NCBI GenBank assembly: GCA_008632985.1
Contig: QPGO01000310.1
Location: 1 to 62,203 of the forward strand
Reading direction: 5' to 3'
Length of the DNA stretch: 62,203 bases
DNA from: Psammoneis japonica
Taxonomy: Eukaryota
Part shown: one piece after another, positions 2,750-57,689 of the stretch
Position numbering within the stretch: position 1 is the stretch's first letter
How the letters are laid out: every line of letters starts with the position of its first letter
Notes under the pieces: generated by a model
Told to the model about the DNA's origin: nothing
Database searches by the model: none
What the model saw: only the letters and a program-made list of their open reading frames with translations
Made by a program: the position numbers and the translations under genes

Positions 2750-4220
2750 CCAGAGCAAGTTGTTTTCTTTCAAACATGCAATGAAAAATTTTAAGGTCTG
2801 AATCATCAACAGAGTTGCTGCAAGAGAGTTGGTGGAAAGCCACTTTTGGCTGTGCTTGCAGCAGAAAGGGGTTGCATGGAGGACACGGTAAAACCACTCT
2901 TCTCCAGTGGTGCCATGTCAGAAGTGAGTCTCAAGATTGCAAAGCACTTGCATGATTTGGGTCACATGTCCAACTTGCACTTGTCATGCACCAACATGGA
3001 ATGAAATGTGTTGACCCCATTGCTGCCATCAAGGAGAGGGACGCCCCATCCAAAAGGGCAGAGGTGGTCATTTGCAACATCATGTCATTGCAAGTTGATC
3101 TGTCTGAAGGACAAGATGAACAGAAAGCAACCAAGGGAGGACTTGTCTGTGCACCAGTTGTTTTCTTTCAAACATGCAATGAAAAAGCAAAAGGACTGAA
3201 TCATCAACAGAGTTGCTGCAAGAGAGTTGGTGGAAAGCCACTTTTGGCTGTGCTTGCAGCAGACAGGAATCACGTTCCATGCAAACAACACAACAAACAA
3301 TCGTCCATGACGAATTGCACTTGAAACCATTTCGCTCTGTCTTTTTCGTCTTGGCTCTGACAAAGCGAATAAATCTCGATGCAACGAAAGAACAAGCACG
3401 GTGCCTCAAGTCTAAACAGAAAGTGGTGACACTGTCAATGTGAACCCAAACCTGATTAGATTGTGAGCGTGTCGCTGCAGCACCACTCGATCCACATGTC
3501 TTAACCAACCACCAATTGTGACACAGCCCTCCATCCAGATTTACTCAGAATCACATGGAGGACACAGCAAAACCACTTTTTTCCAGTGGTGCCATGTCAG
3601 AAGTGAGTCAAGATTGCAAAGCACTTGCATGATTTGGGTCACATGTCCAACTTGCACTTGTCATGCACCAACATGGAATGAAATGTGTTGGCCCCATTGC
3701 TGCCATCAAGGAGAGGGACGCCCCATCCAAAAGGGCAGAGGTGGTCATGTCATTGTGGGTTGATCTGTCTGAAGGACAAGATGAACAGAAAGCAACCAAG
3801 GGAGGACTTGTCTGTGCGCCAGTTGTTTTCTTTCAAACATGCAACAAAAAAGCAAAAGGACTGAATCATTGACAGAGTTCTTGCTGCAAGAGAGTTGGTG
3901 GAAAGCCACTTTTGGCTGTGCTTGCAGCAGACAGGGATCACATGGAGGACACAGCAAAACCACTCTTTTCCAGTGGTGCTGTGTCAAAAGTGAGTCAAGA
4001 TTGCAAAACACTTGCATGATTTGGGTCACATGTCCAACTTGCACTTGTCATGCATTGACATGGAATGAAATGTGGTGACCCCATTGCCGCCATCAAGGAG
4101 AGGGATGCCCCATCCAAAAGGGCAGAGGTGGTCATTTGCAAGATCATGTCATTGTGGGTTGATCCATCTAAAGGACAAGATGAGCAGAAAGCAACCAAGG
4201 GAGGACTTGTCTGTGCACTG
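2750..4220. repeat. Diverged tandem repeat, ~390-bp unit, about 3.5 copies, with a ~280-bp interruption at ~3270-3545
   Basis: tcaagattgcaaa..acttgcatgatttgggtcacatgtcc occurs at 2931, 3608 and 3995. aagagagttggtggaaagccacttttggc occurs at ~2822, 3220 and 3888. Confidence 0.85.
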
Positions 4221-7200
4221 CATTTGGCAAAATGTGCCTGCAAGGAATGTGGAATTGAGTTTGGAGCTCAAATTGCCAGCTCATCTTGGAACTGCTGTCT
4301 CTCAGTTTGACCATGTGTGACAGACATAAAGAGCACTTGAAAAGAGCACAGTCATCATGCTTTGATGGAGCCACCACACACACCACATGTGCAAGGGTGA
4401 AGGTTGCAAAACTGGGTGCTGCTGGAGCACAGTTGCGCCAGCACTGGTGTTGTCGTTGTTCTTGAGCACCACATGTTTGAATTAAATTTCACACTGCACA
4501 AATGATTTTTGATGTCAGGGCATTCAAAGCCTTTTGTTGGCTGTGAGGATCATTGCAAGTGGGCCAGGATGGTGCAGGCTGACAAAAGCCACAAGCAGCA
4601 TTGCATGTTTGCAAGGAAGAGACAGTGCAAAAAGGCATTGTGAGCAAGAGCAGCAGCTGCACAGCTTTTTCAGAGCTTGTTGTTGAAATGAGCAGCTTTT
4701 GTGATGTCATCTTGTGTCATGTGGTGAAGCAGCTCAGCACTGGAAAGTGGGGTCACAGCCAGCCAGGAGTTTGCTCCTCATTCAGATGGACCCTTGCTGT
4801 GAAGAAATCAGCAAGATGCATCTTGTGATTGAGGACAGCTTTTGCTTTTCATTTGGCTGTCACAAAAAATCAAGGCTCTCTCACTCTCTCTTTCTCACTC
4901 TGTTTCTCTCTCTTGTGTGCTGTGCCACCAGCAACCAAGGTGCCAGGCACTGTCATCCATCTCAACTCACGTGTCAACACACATGTTTGTGTTGGAGGCA
5001 GGAGGCATGCAAAGAGAAAAACCAAGGAACAGAGAAGACACTTGTTTTGAAAGGATCCAAAGGATCCAAAATGTTGGTGTGGCACAGTTTGTCTCTGTGG
5101 TTTGTTGATTGTTGCCAAAATGTTGCTGATTTTGCAGTGGTCATGTGCAGCACCTGATGCTGGCAGGGTTGTGCTTTCAAAGCTGGCACTTGTGGTTTGC
5201 TCCTGTCTCAAGCTGGGCTCACATGCTGGTTGCATGGGCAGATGCTGCAGCTCAATGAGAGTGGAGGAGCAAGCAGGAGAGAAACAAAACAAGCAGATGC
5301 AAAAAGACGTGCAGCTGTGCCATGCAACATGTGAGTGACACTCACAGATTGGCCACAGAACAGCTCAAAAATTGTGACAAAATTGCAGTGGAACCACCCC
5401 AATGATGAGAAAGATGCCACAAAGCAGAAAAAATGACATTCAAGGTGCTTTGACAATGCTCTTCATGCCACACAGAAAAATCAGCACCACAACACTGGCA
5501 AAAATTCATGACACAATGACTGCCACCCAATCTTTGTGCTCTTGAAAAATGCAGTGGAGAAATGGAGCTGCTGTGCGCTTTGCAAATTTTGGTGCTGACA
5601 ACTGTCTGAGCATCCTCCAAGCAGCAGCAGCTTGAGCAGCAGCTGCAACTTTGCTTTTGACAATGCAAGCAACACAGTCCATCACACTTTTGTCATCATT
5701 CTCTTTGTCTTTTTTCTGTTGTGTTTTCACAAACACAATGATCATTCTCAGCCACCACCATGATTTGACTCTGCCTTCACAGTTGATTGCAAGAGCAGTG
5801 TGAGTGACTGTCTTTCTCACAGTGCTCTCTTTGGGAAATGCTTGCCAGCACTGCTGCATCTTGCTGTGTAGAGGTTTTCAGCATTGTGCTGCATTTGGTC
5901 TGGTTGTCCATCATTCTTGGGTGGTTCCCATCACTTGCTGGAACAAACTGCACCTCTTCTTCATCACGCTCAAGTCATTCCCACTGTGAGGTGCACAGAG
6001 CACTTGCTGTTCTCACATTCAAGAAAGAAGTCACTGCACATTCATGCCTTGTTGAGGTGTGTTCACAGGATCATGAGCACTGTCATCTCATTGTTCAACG
6101 TCTGTCTCTGGGTTTGAAAAATTTTGATGCAATCAACAGCAGAGGAGCAATGCCATGGCAGGATTTTGGATCTGCCAGCATTGCCTTGCATTGGATGCTC
6201 ATGCTGCTGGCTGCTGCTGTCTCTTCTTCATCAAAGCTGACTTCTTGTGTCTTTGTTGTCATTTCCAATCTCTGCAGCTGCCAGCACATTCAACATGCTC
6301 AACTCAGCAAAATGTCCCCTGATGTGAGAAGGGTTGCCATGATCAAAAACAGAGTGAGCAAGTCACATCTTGCAGAACACTCTCAGTCAGTGTGTGCAGC
6401 ATCATTTGGTGTGCAATTTTTGTCACATTGGTGCTTTGAGCAAATGCCCTGTGCCCCCTTGCTGATGGCACTTTCATTGTCAACCTGACAAAAAGGAGCT
6501 TTGTGGCAAAAGGCTCTGTCATCTGGGGCAGGTGTGGGCAGCAGCAATCCTGGAGGCTGAAGAAGGTCATCACACATGAGGTTGCCAAAGATTTTGCACA
6601 CAGCAAATGAGAGATTGTGGCCTCCATGCACGTGCACCCACTTGATGTTCTTTTGCAAGAATCACAAAAGAGATGTGGGTTTTGCTGCTGGAAGTCAATC
6701 TGTGCTCTTGTGCGTGAGTGTCTCTGTCAACAAAAAGATGATGGGGTGCATCTTCCTCATTTTTTTTTCATGAAGCAGAGTGCCCAGCAGCAAAGTGACA
6801 ATGGACACAACATGCTTTGAGGTGGGTGCTTTGCATTGTCTGCCATGACTTTCACTCACAGCCAAAGACTTTGTCACATCCCATCCTGACAACCAGGGTC
6901 ACACTCTCTTCTTTGCTCCATTTTGCTCAATGTCTGGAAGAGCCATTTTTCCAACCTGCTCATGCTTTCTTCATTTCCAAATCTGCTGACTCATCTTTAG
7001 ATGACTCAGACAGAGCAGGCATTTTCAATGTTGGTGACAAAGAACATGCATGGCTGGACATTTGTTTTTTCCTCTCAGATTCTTGAGATGATGATGTGCT
7101 TGCCAATCAAGCAAGATGCCCAGCACCAGCTTTGTGAACGTTCTTGCAACTCTTGTGCAGCAAAAAGAGGTTTGTGCGCCTCCTTTCTGTGCTGTTGGTG

Positions 7201-7700
7201 GAAATTGCACAGTGTGAATCATGTTTAAACTGAAATGGCGGTGTGTGTGGGGGGCAAGCTTGGATGCCAAGGGGTTTGTTTGCAGCACTCAGTGCAGCAG
7301 AGAGGGTGACAGATGCTCCAGAGAGCCTTGCAAATCAAGCAACTCATCCAGCAATGACCTTTTGAAAGTTTGCCCTTGCACATCATCAAAATTCCTTGTT
7401 TCTCCAACTCAACAAGAGAAACAACAAAAGATGCAGGGAAGCACAGCAGGAAGAAAAAGCAGCCAAGTTGTGCTCATCGGTCTCTGCAACTTGACGAGTC
7501 TGCCTCTTTTCGAGCCAACAACAGCCGAGTGCAAAAGGGGGAGCAACTGGTTGCTCTCTGTGGTCATTGTGAGAAGCAATGAATTTTTTTCATCGAGCAG
7601 CAGAGAAGGAGCAGCAGCCTTCACAGCCACTGAAGCAAGAAGCAAAGAGCCAAAAGATTCTCCATGGAAATGGAAGCTCATGAGCTGCTCGCTCATGCAC
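4220..7700. mobile_element. Degenerate TpA/CpG-depleted block, probably a decayed transposon or gene relic (family not recognisable)
   Basis: Only a handful of TA dinucleotides in 3.5 kb. Overlapping spurious ORFs lack Tyr. Composition matches the block carrying RT motifs. Confidence 0.45.
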
Positions 7701-7889
7701 AGATGAGTTGCTTCCTCGAGAGCCTAGAGCAGTGTACACAACAACAAAACTTCTTCCCACCGGCCGACCACCGACAGGAGAGAACCCGGAAATCGCACAC
7801 ATTCGGAGATCGGAGATCTTTCGCAGTTGATTGATGAACCGCCATGACGACGAAGACCGGCGCCGCTACATTGAAATCAACAATTTGCA

Positions 7890-11935: not shown

Positions 11936-13897
11936 TTATTCCTGGAAGCAACTTCTGTCGCAGTGTTCGCTGGGCGCAGGCACCTCAAGAGGGGAGTCCA
12001 TGGAGTTTACATATGGCGTGATATCCCTCCCGTACAATATCGTAGGAGTGCAGCAATGAGGCCATTGTATTTGAAGCTTTATGGGCGTTCCTGACGGACC
12101 AAGACCGAATATGACACGGTCCTCACTTCCGCCATATGCGTCTGTCTCGTGACCACGTGTGCTGATCACGCGCAACTGCCTTGTTGTCTCGTTTTCATTC
12201 GGCCCCATTCCTACTGCTGTGAGTTGCACGATAGCACCAATAGAACTTGCATGGCGGACCCTCTTTTCAAAGTTGAGAGCGAGGAATCTGTTTTTGTTGC
12301 CGGTGTCTCCCAGTGTGTTACGCAGAATCACCATGGGTGCAAACTTGTATCCAATAATGACGTCGACGAAGCCATCATTATCAAGGTCCGCAACCGTTGG
12401 AGGAAAGGCAAAAACAGGTTCTCGTTTGTTTTTGAATATGCTGCATATGGCAAACTGTTTGTCGAACAGAAGTGACTTACACACTTCCTTAGGTTGATGG
12501 TAACGGCATTGGCGACTATTTTGCGTATCAGCATTGGTTGTCGGGACACCCTTGCAAAACTGCTCGGGATCCTGTCCATAACGAAGAGAATTAAGTTCCC
12601 CAAAATCCATGTCGGTCCCGTCGGGATTCTTCAGCTTTTGCCATGTCATGCTGCTGGATAATTCATAAATACTGTGGCGCCCTGGTTGGCTCTTACAAAC
12701 CACCAACATGTCTATCTTTCCATTCAGGTTGAAATCTGCAAAGCGAAATCCAGCGGCAATCGTGCCACCGCACACGTTTAATGTTGCGTCTGGTCGTCCC
12801 ATGTGTAACAGGCAAGACTGGCGCTCAGCGTCGTCTGAAAACTGTGCGCACCTGCTTTGGCGTGACGATGACAGAAAAAAATCAACGCTTGACCTCCTGA
12901 GGATAGCCACATCTGGGAATCCGTCCAAGTCAAAGTCTTGAGTTGCAATTCCGTGTGCAATATCGTTCATATTCATTCCCTTGGGAGGCAGAGTGATGGT
13001 CCTTCGAAGCAAATTGTCCGCTTCCGAATCGAACTGATAAACGCTGAGACTATGCCTAGGTGCCTTCTGGCACACTGCATTTGTAGAAACACCAGGATTG
13101 CATTGCGATGGTACAATAAACTCCTTGGCGAAACCGTCACCGTCGAGATCTGTCAACACGGCCACAAACGCGAATTCCTCAAAGTTGTGAGAAGGGCTCC
13201 TCGTCACGTGGAACCTCCGCCCGTCAATGTTTCTATAGAAAAATCCCGGGCTTACTACGTCATCCTCTCGCTCACTGTTGAATGTTACAACATCCAAAAA
13301 ACCATCACCGTCTGCATCAAACCAGTACTGATGACGACCCCGTTCGTTTCCATAGCTATGTCGTCCCTGCAATCCCGCTTCAAGCGCCGCGTCTTTGCCA
13401 CCAACAAGACGGTACCCTAGTTCCGATGTTTCATCTCTTTCTCCCCAATAGATTGCGTTATCATATTTTTTTGCGTTCCCCACGCCAAACCCCGCACCCG
13501 TGACCACGTAAAAGTCTGTGATGCCGTCACCGTCAATGTCGACAAATGCAACGGAATGAGTATCGTAGCAAAGGTCATCTTTGTTTAGCAATGGATCGTC
13601 AGTAGTTTCGATGAAACCTTTGCCGTCGTTGGCCGCATAATAGGTGCCATCAGTCCCATTACGAAGTACTCCATCCCAATCAACCGTACAACCACCTTTG
13701 GGACCCCATGGCGATGTGCCTGGGTCAGACCATCTGGACCTCGCTTTAGTAAACCTTAAGTGGTTGTGATGATAGAGGTCGAGAACTCCGTCGTGATTCA
13801 AATCGGGCACATATGCGGAACCCCAGCTGAACATGGGTATCTGCATAGCTAGCTCCGTCATCGGGGGCTTGTCATATCCTGGAAGCAGCTTGAACAT
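11936..13897 (-). CDS. FG-GAP/VCBS-repeat protein with a C-terminal ASPIC/UnbV domain (CRTAC1-like), copy 1
   Basis: Repeated DxDxDG Ca-binding motifs (DLNHDGVLDL, DIDGDGITDF, DADGDGFLDV, DLDNDGFVDV) and C-terminal IGAIV...FGLG...IQWP. Intronless. Start MFKLL chosen from conservation with the paralog; an alternative ATG lies at 13975. Confidence 0.88.
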   Translation of the reverse strand: MFKLLPGYDKPPMTELAMQIPMFSWGSAYVPDLNHDGVLDLYHHNHLRFTKARSRWSDPGTSPWGPKGGCTVDWDGVLRNGTDGTYYAANDGKGFIETTDDPLLNKDDLCYDTHSVAFVDIDGDGITDFYVVTGAGFGVGNAKKYDNAIYWGERDETSELGYRLVGGKDAALEAGLQGRHSYGNERGRHQYWFDADGDGFLDVVTFNSEREDDVVSPGFFYRNIDGRRFHVTRSPSHNFEEFAFVAVLTDLDGDGFAKEFIVPSQCNPGVSTNAVCQKAPRHSLSVYQFDSEADNLLRRTITLPPKGMNMNDIAHGIATQDFDLDGFPDVAILRRSSVDFFLSSSRQSRCAQFSDDAERQSCLLHMGRPDATLNVCGGTIAAGFRFADFNLNGKIDMLVVCKSQPGRHSIYELSSSMTWQKLKNPDGTDMDFGELNSLRYGQDPEQFCKGVPTTNADTQNSRQCRYHQPKEVCKSLLFDKQFAICSIFKNKREPVFAFPPTVADLDNDGFVDVIIGYKFAPMVILRNTLGDTGNKNRFLALNFEKRVRHASSIGAIVQLTAVGMGPNENETTRQLRVISTRGHETDAYGGSEDRVIFGLGPSGTPIKLQIQWPHCCTPTILYGRDITPYVNSMDSPLEVPAPSEHCDRSCFQE

Positions 13898-14039
13898 GGT
13901 GTCGTTGGTGAAATGTGATTTTGTTCTTGTGTCAAATTTTATGAGAGATGTCAAAGCTATTCTATCTCCCATCATGAATGCGAACCGAGAACCGCGCGCA
14001 GTCCGTAGTACTGAAGTGTAAATAGTTTGATACACTAAT

Positions 14040-14572
14040 TATTGTACTTAAAAATTATACGGAAGGTTTCTCAATCACACGAATGAAACATAATTCTGGT
14101 GATCTCGTGAAATTCGTACTGCAATGTACGTCCAGTGTCACATCATTAAGAACTCATCGGTCATTAGTAGCCCTAAGTAAACCTCGGTGAGATCGCCCAA
14201 GTCGCATGAACCTTATAAATGTACACAACAATTATACGGAGACTTTCTAAGCCATCACATAAATGTTAGAAATCATTTATCAATCAGGTCATGGCATCTA
14301 AAGATCGTCTAATAAATAACGTCGGAGAAACTCATCGGTCATAATTATTAAAAAAACGCGGGAGACGAAGGTCGCGGTTCGCATTTGTGCCAGATTTTTG
14401 TGCAGTAAGTGGGCCGAAGGTTCGTGCCACTCGAGAGGACACACAAAAAAAACAAGAACATCAAAAGAAATAAAAAAGTGAACGCGGAATTAAAATTTAC
14501 TGCATTCAGTTTGAACATAAAGAACAAGAAGCCCGTGGATTACATTGAATTGCTCTCTCGGAAGTCCTAACC
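14040..14572. promoter_or_regulatory. AT-rich divergent promoter region with three GGTCAT motifs
   Basis: Lies between head-to-head genes. aactcatcggtcat occurs at 14151 and 14329, tcaatcaggtcat at 14280. These blocks are conserved at 19140-19260 and 31905-32050. Confidence 0.6.
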
Positions 14573-19041: not shown

Positions 19042-19299
19042 GGTGTCGTCGGTTAAATGTGGTTTTGCTGTTTGTGTGTTGCATAGCCCTGGTCGCCTCA
19101 GCTCTCTAGTATTCTCCCAAAAAATGTTCGCATCGTTACGCATCAATCAGGTCATCGATTGGACATATTAATAATATGTGAAATCGAGAACTCATCGGTC
19201 ATAAATGGTAATATGAATTTTCTGAAAGAAAACCTGGTCCGTTCAGGTCGGTGAGATCGAGCACCGTCAGGACAAAATTGGTCATTTTCTTATTCAACT

Positions 19300-22200
19300 A
19301 CAGTACAGCGCAGCAAGGGCAGCAATGTGAGAAAGGGGCATTTGTGTTGAAGAAGCGTGTAAAAAAATTGGGGTTTGGGCGCTGGCAGATTGGGAGGTTC
19401 TTGGACACGGCTCATGCAGGGGCACCCCAGACTGTTGCATTCAGTGCTGACGGGCATGGTTTTGGCCACGCACCAGTTTTGGCAGTGCACCTCAATTGCC
19501 CATGCCTTGTCACTGGGAAGATTGCAGAGGATCAACTTGAGTGACTCCTTGTGTGCATTTGCTTTCCTCTCCATTTGCTTTCCTCTCAGCTGCCCCCCCC
19601 CACTTCTTCACCTCATGAGTTGTGGCCTCTTTGTGGATGGCCAAAATGATTTTGGAATGGCCGCGAAGTGAGCTGTTTTGCATTGCTGGCTCCATCAGAT
19701 GTGAGAGATGGATGGCCCTGCAACCAATTTGACAGGCAGGCCGCCCCTGGGTTGTGCCTGGTGCCAGAATCTTGCAAATCAGTGCTGGAGGAGCTGATCC
19801 TGGATGGCATCTTTGACATCAGCAAACAACTCTTGTTGGGTGCACCACACCACTCATGCCATTTGGAGCTTGTGAAGACCAGCACGAGCAGCTCTTGTGT
19901 TCTTGTGGTCAGTGGTCAGTCGCTGTTTTGTCAGGGCCTTGGATTGCCAAGATCTGTGCTTTGGATTTCTCAGATGCCCGGCTGTGGTCGATTGATTCCT
20001 TCTCACCCACAAAGCCTCAAAGACAGTGCTGCCTGCAGAGACAGCAAATCATGACTGGAGCATTTTTGAAGTTTTTGGCAGAGTGGCACACCTGTGCTTG
20101 GGGCCACATGCCAAGGAGTCAACAAGGCCAAGTCCATGAGCTGCCATTCCTTGTGGGTCACCTTGATTGACACCTTTTTTTTGCTGAAAAGGATGGCCAT
20201 CATTCTGAAGTGGCCACAAATGTTCAGAACACTGCAGAATTTTGCACCAAATGACCACAAGTGTGCCTCATGTCATGCAGTGCTTGGGCCATGCTTTGCT
20301 GATGACAAGAACCGCTGCAGTTGTCTTTGAACTTGCTTGCGCTGTTCCCAGAGCAACTTCATCATGTTGTCTTGGCCCTCAATTTCTGCTTCTAGTCCAG
20401 CACACAACTGATCTGTGCCAAAAGCCTCTTTGGCTTCTTTCCCAGCAGCTCCAGCCAGGCAAATGCCGAGACTTGTGACTGGTGCCGGAGAAGTCTCTTT
20501 GCCATGAGCGCTGTGCATGCTGCCTTTCTGGGGCAAGAATGTGTTTGCCAGGCAGTTGGCAAACATGTGCAGCACTTCTCAAAGCTGTCCACCAGCTTTG
20601 CTGCATTGGAGCAGCCAATGCTGTGTTTTGGCATCCAATTCTGCCAAGTCATCCTGTGCTCCCTGATGACAACTTTTGTGTGATGGTCTTGACATTGCTG
20701 TTGGTGACAATGACATCCCAGCAGAGTTCAGGCAGCTCACTTGAGTCACTGTGAAAATGTGGTCTTCAACTTTCTCATCATCTCTCCCTTTGTCAGCAGC
20801 ACCCTTCTCTCTTGCTTCACTCTTGGGTGTGGTGTTTTCCTTGTCAGCTTTCTCAGCACATGCCCACCTTTTTTCTCTTTGCCATTGACATCAGGGGTGG
20901 GGTGTTGATGAGTTGACAATTTTTAGCTGAAGCAGACAGGTCTTCCAGAGGTGAAAACCTTTTGGGGCTTTTTGCCCAAATTCCCATCACTCAAGCCACA
21001 AGTTGGGAATCCTGCCTTTTTTTTTTGCACTTTTTGAAACAAGCACAAGAGCTGCATCATGGTTGGCCCTGCTTGCTGGGTGGTGTGCAAGCAAGCAATG
21101 AGTTTGGTGAGCAGGCATCAATGTGCAATCACAGCACAGCTTGCTTTTTCCCTGGGATGTTGTTTCTTTTTCAGCAGCATGGGCAGGTCAGGGCTTGAGT
21201 CTCAACTCATGTGCTCTTTGGGCAGGAGGCCTCACATTCATCAGATCACAACTGTGCCATGGTTGCCCATGTTGTTGTTCATGTTGTTGTCATCCAATGG
21301 GTCCAAGGTTTTTTTTGGGGGGGGGGGGTTGCCGCTCCATTCAAAATTGCTTGAGTTCAAAGAAATTTGTTGTGAATTTTTCTCTCAATTGCGGCACAAG
21401 CACAAAAAGACAGTGGTCATCACATTGAAAATCATGTCCAAACTTCAGCAATGAGAGAGACAAGTTTGGGAATGTTTTTGCACTTGATGCAACTTTTCTG
21501 GCTGCAAAGCTGTTTCTTGCCATGGTGCAGCACTCCTGTGGCTGTGACATCTGGTGCCACATCATTGCTTGAAGTTGCGGTGCAAGTGCAAGTTCCAGTC
21601 TGTCATGGGATTTCTCAATCAACTCAGATGAGATGCCAGCTGGGTTGATTGCATTGGTGGTGGGAAGGTCATGTTCATCAATCAAAGTGGATTGCAGCTT
21701 GGGGTGACAAAAGGCATGCATGGAGACATGCAGCCTGTGCACAGCATTGTCTCTGATTCCCACATCACCAGCAGCTGCATCTTGACAGAGCACAAGTTGC
21801 TGGGCCCAAAAAATGGTTGGCAGTCATGTGGAGCTGGCGTTGATGCCCCCTCATGACACCTGTGCACCCACCTCAATCTGAGCTCAGCAGATGGCAGAGT
21901 CAGATGTCAGAGGATTGGCTGGAATGATGGGCACGTCCAGTTCTGCAAATTTCATGTTGGGGTGGTTGATGGCAAAAAAGGCGAGACTCAGAAGGAGCTG
22001 AGAAGGTGTGTGTTCATCCACTCTTGCATGTCCAAGTGTTCAAATGGAGCTGTCACCAAACAAGTCAGTTCTGTGGGGGGGGCTTCTTGTTGGAGATCAG
22101 TGGCTTTCTCTGCTGTGTTTCCCCTGATCTGCAGTCAATGGATCATTGTCAGCCAGAGTCATGGGATCAGGGGTGTCAGCATGATGCATGCCATGTGCAA

Positions 22201-24560
22201 GAAAGAGTGGATGGTGCAAGAGGCAGCAAGTCTGTGGGGCCCTGTTTCACAGCCACCCTGCTGTCATTCATTTGTGTCAGAGCTTGGCAGAGTGGGTGGC
22301 CATCACTTTTCTGGGTCCAGTGATGGCCTTTGTGAAAATCTGTGTGGCAATCTTGGCAGCCTTCTGACACCACATTGCAGTCACATTGACCATGTTGGAT
22401 GAATTGGCTGGATCAAACAAGATGTGAATGGAGGCAGTCAGCATCATTGAGGACAGGGAAGTCAGCAAAAGAAAGGCATTGTTTGCCACATGACAAGCGT
22501 GGTTGGGTCTGGGCTTCATTCAGTTGCATGTTGATTTTGTGGATGGCTGCCTTGCAAATTTTGTGCATTTCTTGGGCTTGCACATCATCTGCTGCAATGT
22601 CCATGGCAGATGCCTTCTTGTTTGCCAAAGCTGCTGTGGTTTCTTCCTTGGTCTCAACAGTGGAGTGCATTGTTGTCCTTGTTCAGAGTCTCAGAGGGCA
22701 CGACATTGGCTTTGCTTGTCATTGGCACCTGGGTGGCAGCTGTCATGGCAGCTGTCGCAGTGGGCAAATGAACACGCATCACTGAGGGTGTTTTGACAGA
22801 CCTTGTTGCAGTTCCAGGCTGTCAGGTTCTTTGAGCACCAAAGCAAGGGTCTCTGCAATTTTTTCATTTGCAGAGGTGTGCTTTGTTGATGTCTTTTTGT
22901 GCTTCAGCAGTCTTGCCATGCAGGCATTTGCTGTGGCATGTGTTGCTGATGAAGATGTCAAGGGCAGCATTGCCCATGCCCTCAACAACAGCCCTTGAGA
23001 GCCACAGAGAAAGTCTTGGAATTCTGTGTCTTTTTCAGGAGCATCAGGTTGTTCTGCACTGGTGGGCATGTCTTCATCATCTTGCAGGGGTGCTCATGCC
23101 ACATTGGGTGGTGGTTGAATGTGGTCATCTTCAGGGTGGTGCACTTTTGTCTAGAGTGCCAGTGGATGATGTCTGGGAACTTGGAGTTGGGCTCCCAGAA
23201 GGCATTTCTTTCCTGAAGGTGCTGGCAAAGGACAAAACTGTTTTCACATGGTTGAGCTGGGTGAGCATGCAGAGGGGCAAAGTGTTGTTTTTGTTGTTGC
23301 TTGCTGTGAATCCCCAGTGTTTGTTGTCTTTCATGAAGCACCGTGGTGGGTGGATGAGTGTCTTGATGTCTGATGCTGGGTGTGTGACTGTGACACACAA
23401 CTGGAGGTGTGTCATCGGCACACACAACTCACAGCCCACACTCAATCAGCTGTTGCCTGCCTTTGCTTCATTTCTTGCCATCTTTTGCAGGCTCAACTGT
23501 TGGTGCCCCTTCCTTGGCAAAGGGCTGTCAATGCTTGCATTTTTGGATGACAGCCACACTCCCTTCCCGCCATCTTTGATGCACCATGTCATGAGCATCT
23601 TTTCTCTGACTGTCTCTGCGTTCACCTTGTTCTTGTCACTTTTCAAACATTTGCACTCACTCCTCTGAACAACTGTGCTCCCTTGTTTCTTGGCCTTTTT
23701 GAAACATCAATGCAAGAGCTTTTTCCCTCCTTTGCATTTGTGTTTTGAACTCCATTCCATTTTCTCCAGCCCAAAATTTGCCGCCCGACAAATGGCTGCA
23801 AAGATGGACAGCGCCACGTGTTGCTTTTTTGACATTTCACTTTTGTTGGTGTCCCCCACTGGGTGTGGTTTTTAGGCTTTCCATTCTTCAAACACATCCA
23901 ACCATGCAAAGAGCATCCAGTTGATTTCCTGCTTGACCCAAAAAAACCAAAACAGACAGACTGTGCAGCAACAAACAACCCTGCCATGTGCCGCCAATCT
24001 GCGCGCTGGGAATGTGGGTCAATCTGATAGATTTAACAGCACTTGAAATGCAGAAGAGATGGCAGCTGGCTTCAAATGTTGTTGCAGAAGCAAAGGAAGA
24101 AGAGCAAGGAGAGCTCTTTCTGGGGCTGGCACGCTGGGAGCTTCTGCCGCGCCATTTGCCAGTTTCACGCGACGGCGAGAGAGGGCCCCCACTCGCAACA
24201 AGTTTTCTCCAGCAAGATGTGCTCTCCACCACCATTTTTCTTTTGTGTCATCATTGACAACATCTTGGAATTGCCCACAAAAGCTGGCATCATGGACTGG
24301 ATTGGATTGCTCCTGAAGAGTCATCGCCAACCCATGCTGCGCTTTTCCCCTCTGGACCAGCTCCCGCCCCACACAGAGGGGGGCAGGGGCCAGCACTCCT
24401 GGCATGTCCAAGACCTGCTGCCCTTTTTGTTTTCCCTTGATTGACATTGCAAGGAAGCTGCCATCAGGCACAAAACTGATTGGTGCAGGCAAAATGCCAC
24501 AGCAACACAACAACACCAATCTTGAAGTGCTGGAGAGTCGCCAAGAAATAATGCAGCAAG
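19300..24560 (-). mobile_element. Degenerate non-LTR retrotransposon (reverse transcriptase, CRE-like signature)
   Basis: Minus-strand remnants KEAFGTDQLCAGLEAEIEG (~20380-20440) and KGVNQGDPQGMAAHGLGL (~20120-20175) match the RT motifs QLCAGxxAGxEG and GVxQGDPLxMxxYxLG. Heavily TG/CA-mutated; ends are inferred from composition. Confidence 0.75.
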
Positions 24561-25045
24561 GGCAGTTTTAGTTTACAAAACGCGCAGATTCTACTGTACG
24601 CTACGCACGGACCCGGACGTGCTAGCTGTGACAATTTATGCGTTTTACGTCACGGGTCATTTTCGAAAATTCTTAGTATTGCCTCGGATAACGGTTGTTC
24701 GTCAAATTCATTGTCCCATTTACGAGAATAGTCGTAGGGCCCTGCGTACAGGACAGTACGGTGCGACGTGAAGCCTCCACGTCAGCATGGCTATGACCCT
24801 TGATGATGATGATGCATGCTCTACGAACAAAGTGAGGTGAAGTTGAGCGGAAGCAGCAGCAACAACAAGAGAGCTTGAAGGTGGGGTGTGTGTGTTGCAG
24901 CGCTCTGAAACAAAACAAACACCTGGGCTCCTTTCTCCCGACCAAAGAATATCCAAAACGTTACCGCCCGTGAACTTTGACAGCCGGGCCAAAAGAATTG
25001 TAGCAAAAGAATTGTAAATCAAGCGTCGCAGTACTATTCATCAAG

Positions 25046-26630
25046 ATGGCTGGGCCACCTCCGTGAATGGCAGTTCGTGACGGCGGCGTCGATCCTTGTT
25101 TTCACCGGCTTTTTGTCCGTGCTGGGTTCATCCTTCATCGTATATTCCGCTTGTAAGACAAATCGCCACAAGCTCAAGGAGAAAGCAAACCTGCGGCTAT
25201 TGCTTGGAATGAGTATCTATGATCTATGGTATTCATTAGGCAAGGGCTGTTTCTCTTTCCTCCTGTTCCCCGAGGGATATGGCTTGCCTCAGGCCAAGGG
25301 CAACATGACTACGTGCTCCTTTCAGGGCTTCACAGTTCAAATGGCGTACGGAACGGGCTTCTACAACGGTGAGTAGAGCTAGCTAAAGGGCCTGCCCTGT
25401 AGGGTGAAGAAGAATTCTTCTCACGGTGCCTGTCTGACTTCTCTTTGATACAGCCTGCTTATGCATGCACTACTACCTCACCATCTGCCGAGGCATGCCT
25501 ATAGAGAAGTGGAATCGATTTGAACCCTTCTTGCATGGCTTCAATGCCGTGCTCTGGGTTACTACAGGGATTGTCTCGGCGTTGGTAGGTCTTTACAACC
25601 CAATGCTGGGATGGTGCTTCATCACGTCCTATCCACCAGGCTGCGAGTCCGGTCCCGAAGCTCCTCCCTGCGAGCGTTTCCCACCCGAGACGCTGGGCTT
25701 GGTAATGGAAATCACTTCGCATTGGTGGCTTCAACTCTACTACGTCATTGTTATCTACACCAACACTGCAATCTGGTGGAAAGTCCGGAAGCAAGGTCGG
25801 AAGAATCGCAAGTATGCTCCACGCCTTTCTTCCAATGTATCGTCTTCGATTACTTCAGACAGTGCCAACGGTAGTAACACGAGACGGGGAAATCCTTCAC
25901 GCATGGCTTCTAACGTATCGTCACAGTCGGATAGTGGCAACGGTAATCAGTCAAGAAGTGTGAACTGTCGTTACGTGGCAGTCAGAACGTGTCGTTTTCT
26001 GACCGAGACAGTGAACGCGAGAGACAAGTCGCGGTGCAATGCCTTCTGTACACGGTCGCCTTTGCTTTAAGTTGGAGCGGGCCTCTCATCTGGCATTTAT
26101 ACGCATGGATCACAGGCGCGTTCCCCAACTTTACGATTGCGCTCATTGTTGTGATCTTCACTCCTCTTCAAGGCTTCTCCAACGCTGCCGTCTATGGCCG
26201 TCCAACCTACCTTCGTATCCGACGGAAATACCCCATGCTGTCGCGGTGGCGCGCATGGTACCGTGTTTTCTTTTCGGCGGATCCCTTTGCGGACCCCAAC
26301 CTCAAGCGGGCAACATCGTGCACCGCAGATGACACGGGTGATCGCCAAGAAAGTATGGTTGTGGAAGAAGAGGACTGTGAAGAAGGACCATCAGACCTGC
26401 CGACGGATGTAGTTGCGTGCAAGGGACGAGTTGTCTCCTTCACTGTGGACACCGTTGGCTCGGGTTTGCCACAGGACGACAACATGGGCTTGGACGAAGG
26501 CAGAGAAAGGACTATTGGGGAAGAAGGATCGGACCTTCCATCTGATGATGTTGCGTGCGAAGAAGTAGTTGTCGCTGAAGAACAGGCTGCTGTGGAAGAG
26601 AAAAAGGTGATTGATGAATCAAACAGGTGA
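25046..26630 (+). CDS. 7-TM GPCR-like receptor (Git3/cAMP-receptor-like family typical of diatoms)
   Basis: TM1 GFLSVLGSSFIV, RLLLGMSIYD, GNxxTCSFQGF, WCFI, TM7 FTPLQGFSNAAVYGRP. Intron 25369-25453. Apparent 1-bp indels near 25053 and ~25964. Acidic tail with a duplicated EEG(P)SDLP motif. Confidence 0.85.
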
Positions 26631-26987
26631 AGAAGGCTTTTGCGAGAAACAATTCATCATTGAATTCATAGCAACTATGCGATACGTGTTGGCGAAAGGC
26701 CGAGAAGTTTTGGCTCGAGAAACTAGAGGAAAGATTTTTTGTGTGGATATTTTAAGTGAATTAGCCTATGATTATAATTTAGTCTGGAGTGGCAATCTCT
26801 TTATTGCTTCGAGAATACTGCACGCTTCAAACGAGAGTGGAGATGCTGCACGCTTCAAACGAGAGTCGAGATAGCAAGGAACAAGGAAAAGAAATACAAC
26901 CAACCAAATCTGACAGCCCTCTGGCTTTTCCAGCACCTCTCCAACCTTCTTTCCGACAAAGAATCGATTTACGAAGAGGGCCCAGAC

Positions 26988-29900
26988 ATGGACGGAAGCG
27001 CACGCTATCGCCTTTGCAGAGGTGATGCCCTTGACGAGAGCAGAGGTGTGAACATCCAGAGCAAGAAGGTGACACGCAAAACACTTGATGAGAAACTTGA
27101 TCTCGTCATCCACTTCAGCAACGCCCCAGGTCTTGCCAAAGGGATTCTGGGAAGAAGATTCCATGCAGTGCCATCACAGCACAGATGGCAACAATGACCT
27201 TGAAGCATTTTCTTGCCCACTTGGGGCTTGTGAAACCAGTGTGCTGATGAGGTTCACCCTGACCCCTCATTCTCCTTTGATGACAATGTTGATTTTGATG
27301 ACACACATGGCACCTTGCCAATGGCTTTGGCTTGGAGTTGTTTGGTCCAAAGCAAAAGAGCACAACTGCAGTGCAAACCTCCAAAAATCAGTTTGTGCAG
27401 CACATGAATTGGAAAATTGGACACCTTCTCCCAAATGTCCAAGCTCAAGCTCTGCTGCATTCCATGTGTTGCCCCAAAGTTGTTTGCACCTGCAACATTG
27501 TCAGGCAATCTTTTGGCTGTCCTGACACATGGCCCCACATTGTGGCTCATGGATGGAGCATGAAAAAATCACATCTGGCAAAGGGTGGACAGCAGGTTCT
27601 CTGGCGCCAAAGATCAAAAAAGCTGTCCAGCACTTGTCAACACACCACAAAACTGGGAACAATGAGGGCCTTCATCATGATCTCATCCACAACCTCAATG
27701 CAATGGTGGAGGAGTTTGTGTGCCAGATCATTGCTGGAGATGACCTTGAAGACCCAGTCACTGGCAAGCCTCATTTCATTTTTCAATGTGCCGGTCTCCT
27801 CACCTTGATGCCTTGGTTGATGGCCAAGCACATTGTGAGAAGTGTTCTGCTTGTTTTGTCCCTGACATTGTGTTGCGCATTAGCACATCTCTTGTGCAAG
27901 CCAAAAGACAGAAGTTGTTGGTTTCCGCAGATTTTTTGCACCAAGGTTGTTGCCCAGGTGATGTGGCGCACACCCACTGACAGCTTTCTTGCCATTTTTC
28001 ATTCAATTTGTGTTGGCTCAGAGGCTGGTGTTGTGAAGGCTGACTGCCTGCATGACATCAAGGACAAGGTGACAAAGGAAGGAAATGCCAGGTCCTGGAG
28101 AGAGGCTCATGAAGCAAAAGCAAGTGCATTGCTGCAGCAAGAATTTTGCAAGAGCTGTTCCAAAGAGCAGCCCAGAGCACCTTTTCCAGCAGACAAAGCA
28201 AGCAACTTGCATGAGAACAAAGGCTGGCTGCTTGGAAGAAAAAAATGCAAGAGCTCAAGTCAAAAACAAAGCAAAGAATTGGAGGGCAGTGCACACAGGT
28301 GGCATCTGCTCACATGATGGTGGCTGGCTTCCTTTTCCATTTCACTTGCCCACACTGCATTCTTTCATGTGCCTTCTTTGAATGTCCTTCACAAAAAAGG
28401 CCATGATGCCAACAGCAGTTGTTGATCCACAATCTCTTGTGGTGCAGTGATCATCTTGCATCAGCAAGGGAGGTGTGCTGGCACAGCTGCACATCTGGCT
28501 TTCCCAGCCACTTTGTTGGAGTTCAGCACTCACACTCCCTCTTCAGCTCTGTCTCCACCAAGGATGTTGATTGGTCCTGGCCATCTGCTCTCATCCCCCC
28601 CCATGGAACCAGACAACATGTTGTGGCTGCAGAGCTCAGTGCTCTCAGCACTTTGACCCACTCAAATGTCATCCTCTCACCTCTCAACAAGTTGCTGCTC
28701 TCACCTGTCATGACTGCATGTCATTGACAAGATGATGACTGGCACGGAGCACATGCTGCACCACTCTGTTGCCAATTTCCACCCCACAGTCATGATTCAC
28801 TTGTGCAGCTGTGTTTCAAGATGGAGCTGTCATCTTTTGCACCTGTCATTGCAAGACTCATTGTGCCATGATTGAACAATGCCAATTTGAGCATCATTTT
28901 GCATTTGAAACACAAATGATGATCTTGCTCAGCAGCAATCACAAGTTTCAGACCTGTGTTGTTGACAATGACAATCTTGCTCTTGGCACTGTTGCTGCTG
29001 TCCAACCTCCAGTTGAGGTGCAAACTCTGGCCCATCACAGGAGCATGTTCATCACTGGCCATTTGTGCCAAGTTGCTTGCACATTGACACTGGTCTCTCC
29101 ACAGAGATTGTTGCTGCAAATGCTCCATTTTTTATTTTAAAGCAAACAAAGCAAATGAGATGTTGCTCATCCCCATCTTTGCACTGAATGTCATGACTGG
29201 AGCTCCTCCATTGACTCCCGCTGCTGCAGCGCCAGATCCCAAGTTGACAGCAGATCTAAAGACACCATTTCAGGCTTTCAGCACCCGCAAAGTCAACTGC
29301 CAAAAATGAAGCCACTTTGAAGCAGAATTCATCAGATGCGTGGCCCATGCATTGGCAGTTCATTGCTGGATGACAACTGTGACCAAACCAGCAAGTGCAC
29401 CTGCCATTTTGCATGGCAACATTGCCACTCCAAAGCACTTGACTCCATTGAGCATTCTCAGCTCTCTCTGCAATCAGCAAATTTTTGCCATGACTTCCAA
29501 GCTCAGTGGCCAACTTAAAATTGCGCCAATGGCCCCACCAACAATCTTGACAAGGACCACGACCCAAGATCTGGTTGAGGCTCACAGGGCCTGTTCCAGC
29601 TCTGGGTGATGCAGAACAGGCACCACAGACAAGAAATGCTCTGTCACATCAAGCCAAAGAATGGCAGAGTGTTTGTTCAACCATTTGCACAAATTTGACA
29701 TGGTGAGCCTGCAAGCTGAGTGTGAAGCTGGAGTGGCAGCTGCAGACAACTCAGCCCACAACAAAGCTGAGTTGGGTGAGATTGATCTGTCTCAGCTTGA
29801 GTGGCCCAAGCAAGAATGACTGAGGTGCATTGGGAGACCTCAAGGAGTTTTCAAGCTCCACTCTGCTCATGATGGACTGAACACATGTGGTGCCAGTGCT

Positions 29901-31841
29901 TGAACAGTCATTGAGAGCACTGAGAATGATCCAGCAGCACCTGCTTTTGCACAGATCTGGCTGCGGAAGCTGGCTCTGAAGCATTGTGCTCAAGGTCACA
30001 AACATTTCACCTGGGTGCCACATTCATTTGGTGCCCTGTCACCTCAATGCAGTCAAGACCACAGAGTGCAAGGGTGTCAGCTCTGAACAACCCAGCTGAG
30101 ATCAAGTCTGACAATGTCTGCACAGAGTGGCCTGCAATCTGCTGCCTGGCATCATCACTTGTGTTCAAGAAGCACACAGCAAACTCACAAGTGTGAAGAC
30201 TGCATTGGCTGCCAAACTCCCAGAGAGCAATCTCTCACCTCTCTGACCCATCCCCAAGAATGGGAGTCCCAAGCCAAAAAAGTGCCAAAGACTGTGGCCT
30301 TGAGGGATGCACAAAATGCACCTGGCCCAAGTGCAAGGCTGCTTGCCTGAAGAACAACCCTGCTGCAGCTTGCAGATGCCCAACCCACTGAGAATCCACT
30401 TCAACAGCAACCCAAATGCAGGCCTCTCCCATCCTCCTGGTGCACTGACTTTGCCAGAGAGACCGCCCACTGGGCTTGACTGAGACAACAACAACTTGAG
30501 CTGGAAGTTGCTTGGGAAGCACAAGGAATGTGGGTCTGACACCTGGGCTGTGCCAGAATCATTCCATTGCCAACCAACCAGGCAGTTTTAAGCAGAAGGT
30601 CAAGGAGAAAGCACGCTGTCTGGTGACCTGTTTTTGCCAGAAATTCAGTCATGGCATCCCCGCAGGTCATTTGTTTTGACGCTAAAGACAAATGTGCTTG
30701 CTGCCTGACACAAAAGCTGCAAAGCTCACACCCAGAATTCTGTGAGATGAACATCGTGAAAAGCCCTGCCCAGAGCTGGAGCACATCAATTGTGCTGCAA
30801 GTCAAAGCGAAACAGGCCCAAAGTCATGTGCTGGACACACCATGCTCATGAATTTTGTGCTGAGTTTCAAAAAATGCAAAATGTTGCATGCCCTGCTGGA
30901 AGTTTCTGCCCAAAGCTGAGCCTTGTTTGCAGCCAATGACATGTGGTTGCTTCTTTTGCATGGCACCAAGGGCCGGGCTTTTCATCAGGGAGATGCACCC
31001 CATGCTCGAGTGTTTGGTCACCACCGCGGAAAGGCCATTGGCAACATCCCATCTGTTTTGAAGTTATCTGCCTGCTGGTGTGTGTGTGGGGGGCATTTGC
31101 CATGGCCCTTCACACACTTTTCAGCTTTGTGCAGGCAACCTTGCACTCCTCAGATCCTGGCAGGGGGCTGAGAAAGGCCAAAGCGGCTGGCACCCACAGC
31201 TTGTGTGGCTCTGAAGGCAATGTCAACAAATGCAGTCACACCAAGACAACACACAGTGTGAGGTGTGAGGAACAGCTCCTCCTGCACCATTGATGTGGGA
31301 GCAAGGTGCAGAGAGGGAGCTTTTGGCCAATGGAAAGCGCGACTTTTTTCTCATTTTCAGCTGCAAACTGAGAGATTTCTTTCTTCAAAAAGTTCATGTG
31401 GTTGTGAAGCTGGGCCCCAAATCACATTTGAGCTTTTTTGTCCACCATGTTGTGGCATTTGATGATCAAACCAGTTGTCAGTTGGCGCCACAGGAGCCAG
31501 GGTCTTGGCTGCAATTTGACTTTGAGCAGCACAGCCCTCCCAGAGGCTGTTGTGCAGCATGACGCAACAACTGCATGCACCGAAGGTCCTCAAGTTGACA
31601 AATGTTTGAGTGGAACATCATCAACCAGGTTGTGCTAGCTCCATTGTGGTGGGATGCACCCTGGAAGCAGCTTGAGCATGGTGTCATCGCCAAAATGCTG
31701 GCTTCTTTTGTGTCTGAAATCATGCAAGATGATGAAAGCCACTCTGCGCCATCAAAGAATGGTGGTCGAGAACTGCACAAAACAGTTTGTGATCAATTGA
31801 ACATGGCAATCAAAAGGAAGGTTTCTCAAACACACGAATGA
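26988..31841 (+). pseudogene. TG/CA-mutated relic of a possible ~4.85-kb coding region of unknown identity
   Basis: An unmutated ATG-start segment (MDGSARYRLCRGDALDE) grades into TA-free sequence. Protein-like fragments on + run to ...KRKVSQTHE* at 31841, where normal composition resumes. Confidence 0.4.
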
Positions 31842-31899
31842 TCTTGAAACTTGGACCCTTAAGTGTTCGATTCGTGGCATCATTGTTTGATGATCTTGC

Positions 31900-43476: not shown

Positions 43477-43762
43477 CGAGTAAATTTACAATGGCTTTGA
43501 TTATGGGCATGTCGCACCCCCCCAGAAACATAGAGAGGACATTTATTGTAATATACAATTACATACATAATAATAAATACATGTTGCTAATTGTTCCGAA
43601 TGACCGTGATTGAGAATAATTATAGAACGGGACTATAAATGTTTAAATATATGTATTCGGATCTATATGTCATTTATCGTTCCCGTTCAATCGTTTCTCT
43701 TTTTTGCAGAGAGCCGAAACACTCTTTTCTCTTTTCAAAAGTTTGAAACAAAGCCAGAGAAG

Positions 43763-50484: not shown

Positions 50485-51193
50485 TGTCGACAAGAGAACG
50501 ATGAATACGAAAATCTTGCGTCTTTCCAGGACAACTTCTGTTAAGCAATCAAAGATGATCATGATGGTTGTTGCTGTAAGTAGTGTCAGAATCTTTTGTT
50601 TTTGTTCAGACCGGAAAATGACTTGCTTTTCAGAGAGAACCGTCACATCATCGCCCAATGACACCACAACATACTGTAGTCCATGCGCGGTAATTACGTT
50701 TCCGGTGTATATGCTTGCAGCTGTGGTCGTTCTTGATAGTGCTGAAGGAGTTCCGCGTTCCGCCGCATGCTCGGGTGTGTTGTATTCCGCCTCGAGCAAC
50801 GCATTCATCGACGACAGCACCAGCGGTAGGGATTGCAAGCATGCGGTCTATTGTCTTGTCTAGTCTTGAGCGTTTAACAAGTCGTCGTCATGAAAGGACC
50901 AATCGTTGTTATCGTTGCTATGTTGAGTAGTGTCGTTTTGTTTCCCAGAGAGGTGTTGTAGTTGCAGGTTGATGCATGACTTCTGCTTCTGCTTTGATTG
51001 CGATTCTCTGTCAAGAGACTGTCGTCATCGAACGACCATGCATCGAGTCTTCGTCGTTGTTGTCGTCAAGGGTGGGTGGAAAGCAAGTCATCTACGTCAT
51101 CGTTCCAACTGTCTCCTAGCGACGCCATGGTGACAGCGAGAGAGCGAGCGAGGGTTCTGTCAGTGACGGTCTGTCACCGTCGGGTTGTGAGCA

Positions 51194-51301
51194 TCACGTG
51201 CGCACGTGACGAGCGTCCCGTGCGCACGTGTCGAGCGTCCCGTGCGCACGTGTCGAGCGTCCCGTGCGCACGTGTCGGGGTCTGTCACGTGCGCACGTGA
51301 C
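51194..51301. repeat. Three 22-bp tandem units bracketed by two perfect palindromes; seven CACGTG in total
   Basis: gagcgtcccgtgcgcacgtgtc at 51211, 51233 and 51255. tcacgtgcgcacgtga at 51194-51209 and gtcacgtgcgcacgtgac at 51284-51301. Confidence 0.9.
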
Positions 51302-57456: not shown

Positions 57457-57689
57457 GGGAGTCAAACAACACACCACATTGCTCACACAAGATGCACTTG
57501 CACTCAGTTTGGTGCCCCAAATGTCACACAATTTTGATTGAAGAGCAGCCAGAGGGATTGGCTCCTCTTTTTAAGAGGAGCTGCCCTGTGGCCAGTGGCG
57601 AGCTGCACTTCATTCATTGCCATTTTGTGTTTGGCATGCAAGTGCTTGCAATGGAAGCAGCAGAGCCCTTCGGTCTTTGGTTGCACTGG

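Follow-up and report, generated by a model that had tools for sequence, protein, structure and literature searches.

The window analysed here is a stretch of 62,203 nucleotides of Psammoneis japonica DNA (contig QPGO01000310.1 of assembly GCA_008632985.1, positions 1 to 62,203 of the forward strand), and our subject is four blocks in it that have almost no TA dinucleotide. When delimited by their TA content, block 1 lies at 2889..7725, block 2 at 19360..24549, block 3 at 27006..31860 and block 4 at 51117..61325, the left edge of the last falling within 51117-51392 and its right edge at about 61325; none of them was given a strand. The first three are TA-free, CG-poor islands, and block 4, also TA-free, consists mostly of repeats and spans an assembly gap (N, 58878-59353). 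In 1-kb sliding windows, the observed/expected ratio (o/e) of TA was 0.00-0.07 at 3.0-7.5 kb, 0.00-0.05 at 19.5-24.5 kb, 0.00-0.06 at 27.0-31.5 kb and 0.00-0.09 at 53.0-60.5 kb, and 0.40-0.87 in the flanks, while TG and CA rose to an o/e of 1.5-2.6 inside the four blocks. With the expectation computed at the normal TA o/e of 0.61 for the window, the observed and expected numbers of TA were 11/210 in block 1, 6/197 in block 2, 9/192 in block 3 and 7/232 in the core of block 4 (Poisson P ≤ 6e-69 for every block), and the longest runs without any TA reached 2618, 2228, 1386 and 1252 bp. CG was counted at 35/257, 49/312 and 38/286 of expectation in blocks 1 to 3 and, at 159/338, was about half depleted in block 4. 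In sub-block 4a (51392..53400, no strand), TA o/e was 0.13, with 16 TA remaining, and CG o/e was 0.92. The G+C content of the blocks, 0.46-0.52, was similar to that of the flanks. Six-frame translations of the blocks contained Tyr at a frequency of 0.0002, against 0.0237 in normal DNA, with Cys, His, Met, Trp and Gln raised and Arg and Ile lowered, and 1055 of the 1116 stop triplets were TGA (TAA 40, TAG 21). An earlier note, made from the letters alone, had described four sharply bounded, nearly TA-free blocks whose translations nearly lack Tyr and are rich in Cys, His, Met and Trp. Both statements were confirmed, with 6-11 TA where 192-232 were expected and edges in the form of steps, and the coordinates of the note fell within about 100-150 bp of the TA-defined edges; a sliding o/e scan, which it had proposed, gave on this window the low TA and the raised TG and CA reported above. 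Its remark that CG is mostly scarce stands for blocks 1-3 and fails for the part of block 4 at 51.4-53.4 kb.

We looked at how this composition differs from that of normal DNA. In the blocks, a fraction of 0.237-0.251 of the steps was pyrimidine-purine (YR), and about 0.245 in normal DNA, the latter value being an estimate from o/e values and base frequencies. The share of TA among all steps was 0.001-0.008 in the blocks, TA and CG having been shifted into TG and CA. Only the split among TA, CG, TG and CA is altered and the purine/pyrimidine (R/Y) skeleton is intact, as transitions would leave it. Nine in-block repeat pairs (3482 aligned bp, some pairs sharing one copy) showed a transition/transversion ratio of 2.4-15 and 50 double differences, in which TG in one copy faces CA in its partner. 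Two paralog pairs of comparable divergence, taken as controls (4201 bp), gave a ratio of 1.1-1.3 and a single such difference. In the in-block pairs, YR steps carried 0.118-0.128 transitions per site and all other positions 0.049-0.062, transversions amounting to 0.010-0.024; in the control pairs the rates were flat, about 0.06 and 0.05 in every class. Similarly, R/Y identity of the in-block pairs was 94-97%, against a nucleotide identity of 82-92%, and the control paralogs went from 87% nucleotide identity to 93-94% R/Y identity. In families of three to four copies, 169 columns held a YR step in all copies: 118 were uniform, 22 mixed TG and CA, 27 contained CG and 2 contained TA. These counts are about what would be expected if some 17% of the YR steps had been TA at the time of copying and each copy had then resolved them independently. 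Since every copy in these families is derived, majority-rule polarisation is confounded at YR positions; at the other sites it gave 23 T>C against 11 C>T, a weak hint.

Blocks 3 and 4 were found to share a short repeat family that is visible only after R/Y recoding, with 81-86% R/Y identity over 122-299 bp (112-202 reported bits, corresponding by our own estimate to about 40-73 true bits in a two-letter alphabet). Its copy in block 3 lies at 30515..30803 and its relatives in block 4 at 52515-53068, at 60048-60169 and, inverted, at 54368-54556. Because BLAST E-values are inflated with a two-letter alphabet, only R/Y matches of at least 110 reported bits were used. Two R/Y matches were dropped before the counts: an extension pairing 18789-19060 with 31438-31698, which had 51% nucleotide identity, and a pairing of 2532-2877 with 2934-3275, which failed at the nucleotide level. 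A search with nhmmer for the short block-4 unit returned only five copies.

The direction of change can be read from DNA at the edge of block 3. The 19.08-31.64 kb interval is an insertion relative to the paralogous copy of one gene pair, which consists of a CRTAC1/FG-GAP/ASPIC-type gene with its neighbour: in a segmental duplication of 87% identity, 11647-16438 corresponds to 16803-19077 plus 31905-34295, and this second copy is split by a 12.6-kb segment carrying blocks 2 and 3. The last ~220 bp of block 3 (31640..31860, no strand) lie outside the inserted material and match ordinary intergenic paralog DNA at 13880-14110, so that 13875..14150 (no strand) could be taken as an unmutated paralogous reference for polarising changes. 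This host-derived right edge is TA-free: none of the 13 TA of the paralog was kept, the sites now reading CA (5), TG (2), AA (4), TC (1) and GA (1), and four of its nine CG now read TG or CA. Immediately outside the block, 69 of 95 TA are preserved in the paralog pair (11/20 and 58/75). A CTAG at 31636, common to all three copies, is still present, in agreement with the context rule described below. A direct duplication of ~95 bp flanks the 12.6-kb segment (about 18985-19077 and 31640-31720). The 15-base word GAACTCATCGGTCAT occurs at 14150, 14328, 19188 and 31905 (three exact copies and one with a single mismatch), always at segment junctions, and could be a recombination or regulatory site; at least five matches at up to three mismatches to it were obtained in 5 of 100 shuffles, and the count alone is weak.

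TG and CA were about equally frequent in each of the four blocks (535:553, 629:544, 543:576 and 596:569, about 1:1). The runs test on their strand gave z values from -1.3 to +0.9 and the binned dispersion (X2/df) was 0.32-1.29, as in a binomial distribution. Each site was hit on either strand, independently of the others.

We then compared the loss of TA with that of CG. Across seven pooled edges, TA o/e dropped from 0.63 to 0.05 inside 250 bp, and CG o/e went from 1.17 outside to 0.43, 0.33, 0.34, 0.19 and 0.16 with increasing depth. The loss of TA is saturated and step-edged, whereas that of CG is graded and incomplete. Moreover, at 51.4-53.4 kb TA o/e was 0.13 yet CG o/e was 0.92, and the two losses are therefore separable. 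Both depended on the neighbouring bases. The 33 TA surviving in blocks 1-3 and sub-block 4b comprised 26 YTAR, 7 YTAY or RTAR and no RTAY, against 225 YTAR, 740 mixed and 406 RTAY in normal DNA (chi-square p = 3e-21). Surviving CG comprised 90 RCGY, 136 mixed and 33 YCGR, against 385, 977 and 443 in normal DNA (p = 1e-8). The ratio (YTGY+RCAR):(YCAY+RTGR) ranged from 1.37 to 1.74 over the six sub-blocks, each of them above the 1.22 of normal DNA, with the maximum of 1.74 where CG has been kept; part of the TG excess of CG-poor blocks also comes from the Y-C-G bias. The strongest single context was T_C, with TG at 0.64 and CA at 0.30. A T-A-Y motif present on one strand only would bias the outcome in this way.

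The blocks are present in sequence data assembled independently of the window. In the public run X1, 83% of the sampled words of 19.3-27.3 kb were found. Its contigs, from a k-mer assembly independent of that of the window (k-mer depth 33-68), showed no differing letter at 19944-21298, one at 23470-24668, one at 26322-30366 and two at 30349-31852; this agreement concerns the contigs listed, which are the longest, and 21.3-23.5 kb was covered by the reported depth. Two of these contigs span block edges, at 24549 (contig 23470-24668) and at 27006 (contig 26322-30366). Because independent contigs reproduce the blocks and bridge two edges, an artefact of assembly or base-calling is excluded, and the blocks are not products of an assembler, a polisher or a base-caller. 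Of the 235 X1 contigs compared, 83 were less than 90% alike to the window, with 498 transitions and 301 transversions among the differences, gene flanks included. With differences that are mostly transitions, these contigs probably reflect diverged relatives of the stretches elsewhere in the genome. Runs X2 and X3 gave zero cover on the blocks, which says nothing about expression. X1 contigs of block 2 had about half the depth of those of block 3 (33-34 vs 58-68). At 24932-26204, between these two blocks, X1 had some 20 listed differences over 1.3 kb, part of them in two depth classes (27 and 36), in contrast to 0-2 positions per 1.2-4 kb in the blocks. These differences and depths suggest a heterozygous diploid in which block 2 may lie on one of the haplotypes or be diverged between them. 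Directly beyond the right edge of block 2, at 24632-24668, 11, 8 and 13 X1 contigs had loose ends, which suggests that a short sequence found there recurs at many places in the genome.

What do the blocks contain? A Pfam search of 56 of the 94 in-block open reading frames (ORFs) of at least 100 aa returned two sub-threshold chance matches only, and the six read-through frames (X at stops) of blocks 2 and 3 gave no credible family; for block 2, no match appeared even at E ≤ 1 or 0.1. The motif that had been read as a reverse transcriptase relic was located at 20127-20147 on the minus strand, without family support, and the Pfam result for block 2 lends that claim no support. Transitions cannot erase the purine/pyrimidine skeleton, and the period-3 signal after R/Y recoding had a median of 0.7 among 67 windows from the blocks, compared with 7.7 for 30 windows in genes and 1.5 for 101 others; it rose above 6 in three block windows, at 21.6, 28.8 and 29.1 kb. 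Neither block 2 nor block 3, nor the two compared with each other, showed a long terminal repeat-like pair, and a metagenome scan found no relative. The view that the blocks are recognisable transposons or, by extension from the relic named in the earlier note, retroelements is not supported, there being neither a Pfam family in the six frames of blocks 2 and 3 nor coding periodicity. We lean towards describing them as non-coding, low-copy and tandem repeats with a little adjoining host sequence. The first ~1.5 kb of block 1 are a tandem array of ~390-bp units (2755-4220), and block 4 holds a tandem pair (55736-56596 / 56593-57456) and a repeat in three copies (57664-58148, 58145-58630 and 60142-60663). 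A CG-rich 22-bp tandem array of 4.9 copies lies exactly on the left edge of block 4 (51189-51299). Neither a tRNA nor an Rfam family marks the block edges, and Tandem Repeats Finder reported small arrays only.

Between blocks 2 and 3, an island of normal composition (24550..27006, plus strand, ~2.45 kb; TA o/e 0.6-0.77, CG o/e 0.85-1.02) carries an intron-containing gene with its ATG at about 24788 and ORFs to about 26627. In X2, unlike X1, one contig runs directly from 25367 to 25453 and skips 85 bases bounded by GT..AG, as a spliced transcript would do, the kind of run X2 being only guessed. Within the 16 kb compared, X2 cover was confined to the island gene, as in a transcriptome. Both X1 (41/41 depth) and X2 (337/337) have an extra A after 25962. 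The window therefore lacks one base here, and the ORF of the island gene is broken by this deletion, likely a residual assembly indel or an allele. The flanking genes are of the CRTAC1/FG-GAP/ASPIC kind. Word-index searches for the lineage gave one weak hit each and an exhaustive search 320 hits; the relatives are from EukProt, MMETSP and JGI contigs of transcript size, which marks the organism as a poorly sampled microbial eukaryote. Farther along the window, two long ORFs without Pfam domains share 73% identity at the R/Y level over ~1 kb (40782-41802 and 44333-45371). The 815-aa ORF (43610-46054) has a 523-aa antisense ORF, an unusually high TG o/e of 1.6-1.7 and a low TA o/e of 0.41. These ORFs look like a low-complexity, lineage-specific gene family.

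Altogether, the change runs from TA and CG towards TG and CA, takes place at the DNA level on both strands, follows context rules, proceeds with differing kinetics for the two steps, is confined to the blocks and leaves out the gene island. We favour, with a confidence a little above even, the reading that the blocks are ordinary DNA hit by a heritable, region-confined transition hypermutation at pyrimidine-purine steps, in which two activities are superimposed. The first would be fast and sharp-edged, turning TpA into TpG or CpA (A:T to G:C) on either strand independently at each site, fastest at T-A-Y (equivalent to R-T-A) and slowest at YTAR. The second, slower and graded, would turn CpG into TpG or CpA with a preference for Y-C-G; it resembles the deamination of 5-methylcytosine (5mC) in silenced repeats and would be such methyl-cytosine decay. 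The target would be silent, methylated repeat chromatin. We infer that the first activity is driven by an enzyme, since no spontaneous lesion is both TA-specific and domain-confined. As for its chemistry, we give about one chance in three to a nucleic-acid deaminase that converts adenine in DNA to hypoxanthine and has a pocket selective for a 5' T. tRNA adenosine deaminases (ADAT/TadA) have a 5' U requirement and recognise U-A, and ADARs, which favour U as the 5' neighbour, can act in vitro on the DNA strand of a hybrid. The statement in full, namely a natural hypermutation of chromosomal A:T pairs that erases TpA from chosen chromatin domains by A>G in T-A-Y, with a DNA adenine deaminase as the simplest agent, alongside methyl-CpG decay and independently of it, seems to us somewhat less than evenly probable. 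The interpretation of the earlier note is, as a whole, partly supported. Its proposal of a mutational loss of TA and CG in the direction of TG/CA is borne out by the polarised comparison, the TG/CA double differences and the intact R/Y skeleton, and the second activity that it added to 5mC decay is needed for the loss of TA without loss of CG at 51.4-53.4 kb. It was also right on a direction opposite to that of repeat-induced point mutation (RIP), with TpA/ApT at 0.02-0.15 and (CpA+TpG)/(ApC+GpT) at 1.69-2.19 in the blocks.

Several points weigh against this reading. The outgroup-polarised sample comprises only 13 TA and 9 CG sites in a stretch of ~73% identity, and four of these 13 TA read AA, a transversion beyond a deaminase. 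The context rules presume that the blocks once had the normal composition of the window, and in sub-block 4a four of the 16 surviving TA are in TACG, which misfits a strict UACG preference like that of tRNA deaminases. We know of no natural DNA adenine deaminase of such a kind. Run X1 is possibly the source sample of the window, in which case it checks the assembly and not the biology. Finally, a 1051-bp direct duplicate of 99.8% identity (1-1049 / 1876-2926) and two ~2-kb paralog pairs at 87% identity are unmutated, which argues against duplication as a simple trigger. On the side of such a trigger, tandem and dispersed repeats abound in the blocks, and relatives of these stretches probably lie elsewhere in the genome, as the 83 of 235 X1 contigs suggest. 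The host DNA at the edge is affected and the loss of CG deepens inwards, two observations that point towards chromatin spreading. The 1051-bp duplicate has normal TA and CG content, and its last ~170 bp (878-1049 = 2755-2926) belong to the TA-poor repeat family of block 1, from which it follows that the edge of block 1 was duplicated recently and has stayed unmutated since; the duplicate could also be an assembly duplication.

Could the composition of the blocks have arisen otherwise than by mutation in place? Foreign or mobile DNA with a native TA- and CG-free composition, shaped before its insertion by a nuclease or sensor that reads such words, would account for the insertion of 19.08-31.64 kb relative to the paralogous copy and for blocks without detectable homologues or domains. 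We hold it very improbable, for the host-derived DNA at the edge is affected too, repeat copies differ by TG and CA at one and the same site, which is neutral scatter and not maintained sequence, there is no coding periodicity to preserve, and the inserted segment's own gene island is normal. GC-biased gene conversion was rejected: it would favour CG and raise G+C, and the G+C of the blocks, 0.46-0.52, is like that of the flanks. An artefact of sequencing, base-calling or polishing on heavily modified DNA is given slightly less credit than foreign or mobile DNA, although at least one indel of the window, at the extra A after 25962, is contradicted by X1 and X2 and hints at errors of a long-read assembly. 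The X1 contigs (depth 33-68) differ from the blocks by 0-2 letters per 1.2-4 kb and extend over two edges, a modified A read as G on both strands of TA would give conflicting reads and not clean contigs, and a chemical artefact would not halt sharply around a gene.

Given a hypermutation, the agent and the number of activities can be argued. The main rival to adenine deamination is a mutagenic thymine modification or glycosylase route: the T in R-T-A would be modified, for example by a TET/JBP-type enzyme that makes 5-hydroxymethyluracil, or cut out by a glycosylase, and C then inserted by replication or repair. In sequence, A>G on one strand is indistinguishable from T>C on the other, the T-A-Y rule is identical to R-T-A, the four TA>AA among 13 sites are better matched by error-prone repair of an abasic site than by deamination, and other protists are known to concentrate modified thymine at TpA, in association with repeats. 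We nevertheless rate this route as unlikely; the nearly intact R/Y skeleton, with transversions at 0.010-0.024 per site, speaks against a mainly abasic-site route. A single enzyme of dual specificity, hitting C in CpG and A in TpA, would make one process of the two losses, which occur in the same blocks, both end in TG/CA and share a pyrimidine as the 5' neighbour of the base that is attacked (T for A, Y for C). It is more doubtful still: TA falls as a step and CG as a gradient, sub-block 4a combines a TA o/e of 0.13 with a CG o/e of 0.92 over 2 kb, and the 3' rules are unlike (Y after A, G after C). As for retro-copies of A-to-I hyper-edited RNA, made by an ADAR- or ADAT-like enzyme with a 5' U preference, the 5' T neighbour of A>G is the known preference of RNA adenosine deaminases. 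However, editing of a single strand would yield TG only, and the blocks have TG:CA at about 1:1 without strand runs; the lack of strand bias thus excludes a retro-copy of one edited RNA strand. Tandem copies have also diverged in DNA after their duplication, Pfam shows no reverse transcriptase relic in blocks 2 and 3 when these are read through in six frames, and CA, AA and GA steps are not depleted, all of which makes this origin hardly credible.

To our knowledge, all described targeted DNA hypermutation (RIP, methyl-CpG decay, AID/APOBEC) acts on cytosine. A removal of ~100% of TpA in domains with edges of less than 250 bp needs a chemistry that is not known from eukaryotic chromosomes, for which adenine deamination, mutagenic thymine modification and strongly biased repair are the candidates. 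If true, this would be the first natural A:T-to-G:C DNA hypermutator, an "anti-RIP" and a natural counterpart of the engineered adenine base editors. It would bring a new mutational signature and a new way to disable repeat DNA, from which TAA and TAG stops, TATA-like words and the TA target sites of some transposons would all be removed. It would also provide a compositional marker to map silent chromatin by sequence alone and might yield a natural enzyme for editing adenine in DNA.

Full-text literature searches, with subscription journals outside their coverage, returned no description of region-targeted loss of both TA and CG. This points to a TA and CG hypermutation without a described equivalent within the literature covered, an account in subscription journals being possible. 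Passages of PMC4008256 describe an opposite bias, the enrichment of TAA and TAG in gene-poor regions of Toxoplasma. Short-word avoidance in phages (e.g. CA/TG-free zones) is alike in the near-absence of a self-complementary dinucleotide pair over kilobases, but there selection acts on viral coding DNA, whereas the blocks are non-coding, show TG/CA scatter and include host DNA. APOBEC3 offers an enzyme-driven, context-specific transition hypermutation used on mobile DNA; unlike the blocks, it converts C to U at TC/CC on one strand, changes no A:T pair and acts on replication intermediates and not on a chromosomal domain. With ADAR and ADAT/TadA the blocks share an A read as G and a strong 5' T/U rule, yet these enzymes act on RNA (or on the hybrid DNA strand in vitro) and on one strand, while here genomic DNA is changed on both strands at ~100% of sites.

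The deamination of 5mC resembles what we observed in turning CG into TG/CA in repeat DNA, in a graded manner and with a 5' pyrimidine bias, and differences of CG against TG and of CG against CA were seen between in-block repeat copies. A TCG-biased hypermutation, ascribed to the decay of methylated CpG, has been reported in some basidiomycetes. However, 5mC deamination cannot remove TA, and here the loss of TA is faster and more complete than that of CG. Decay of 5mC accounts for only half of the compositional change, because TA is lost more fully and, at 51.4-53.4 kb, without loss of CG. The closest likeness in form is to RIP as described in Neurospora and other ascomycetes, a kilobase-scale, sharply limited transition hypermutation on both strands that hits repeats, leaks to some extent into adjacent unique DNA and spares neighbouring genes; the blocks likewise show transitions (ratio to transversions 2.4-15), on both strands and within sharp limits. 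Here, though, a 1-kb duplicate of 99.8% identity is untouched. The RIP indices, with their usual thresholds, are at the opposite extreme: TpA/ApT was 0.02-0.15 in the six sub-blocks and 0.62 in normal DNA, below the product excess of more than ~0.89, and (CpA+TpG)/(ApC+GpT) was 1.69-2.19 in the blocks and 1.24 in normal DNA, above the substrate loss of less than ~1.03. As the A:T pair is attacked, an enzyme of the DNA cytosine methyltransferase type cannot explain the blocks. RIP changes C to T at CpA and makes TpA; the blocks lose TpA and gain CpA and TpG, which is the exact reverse.

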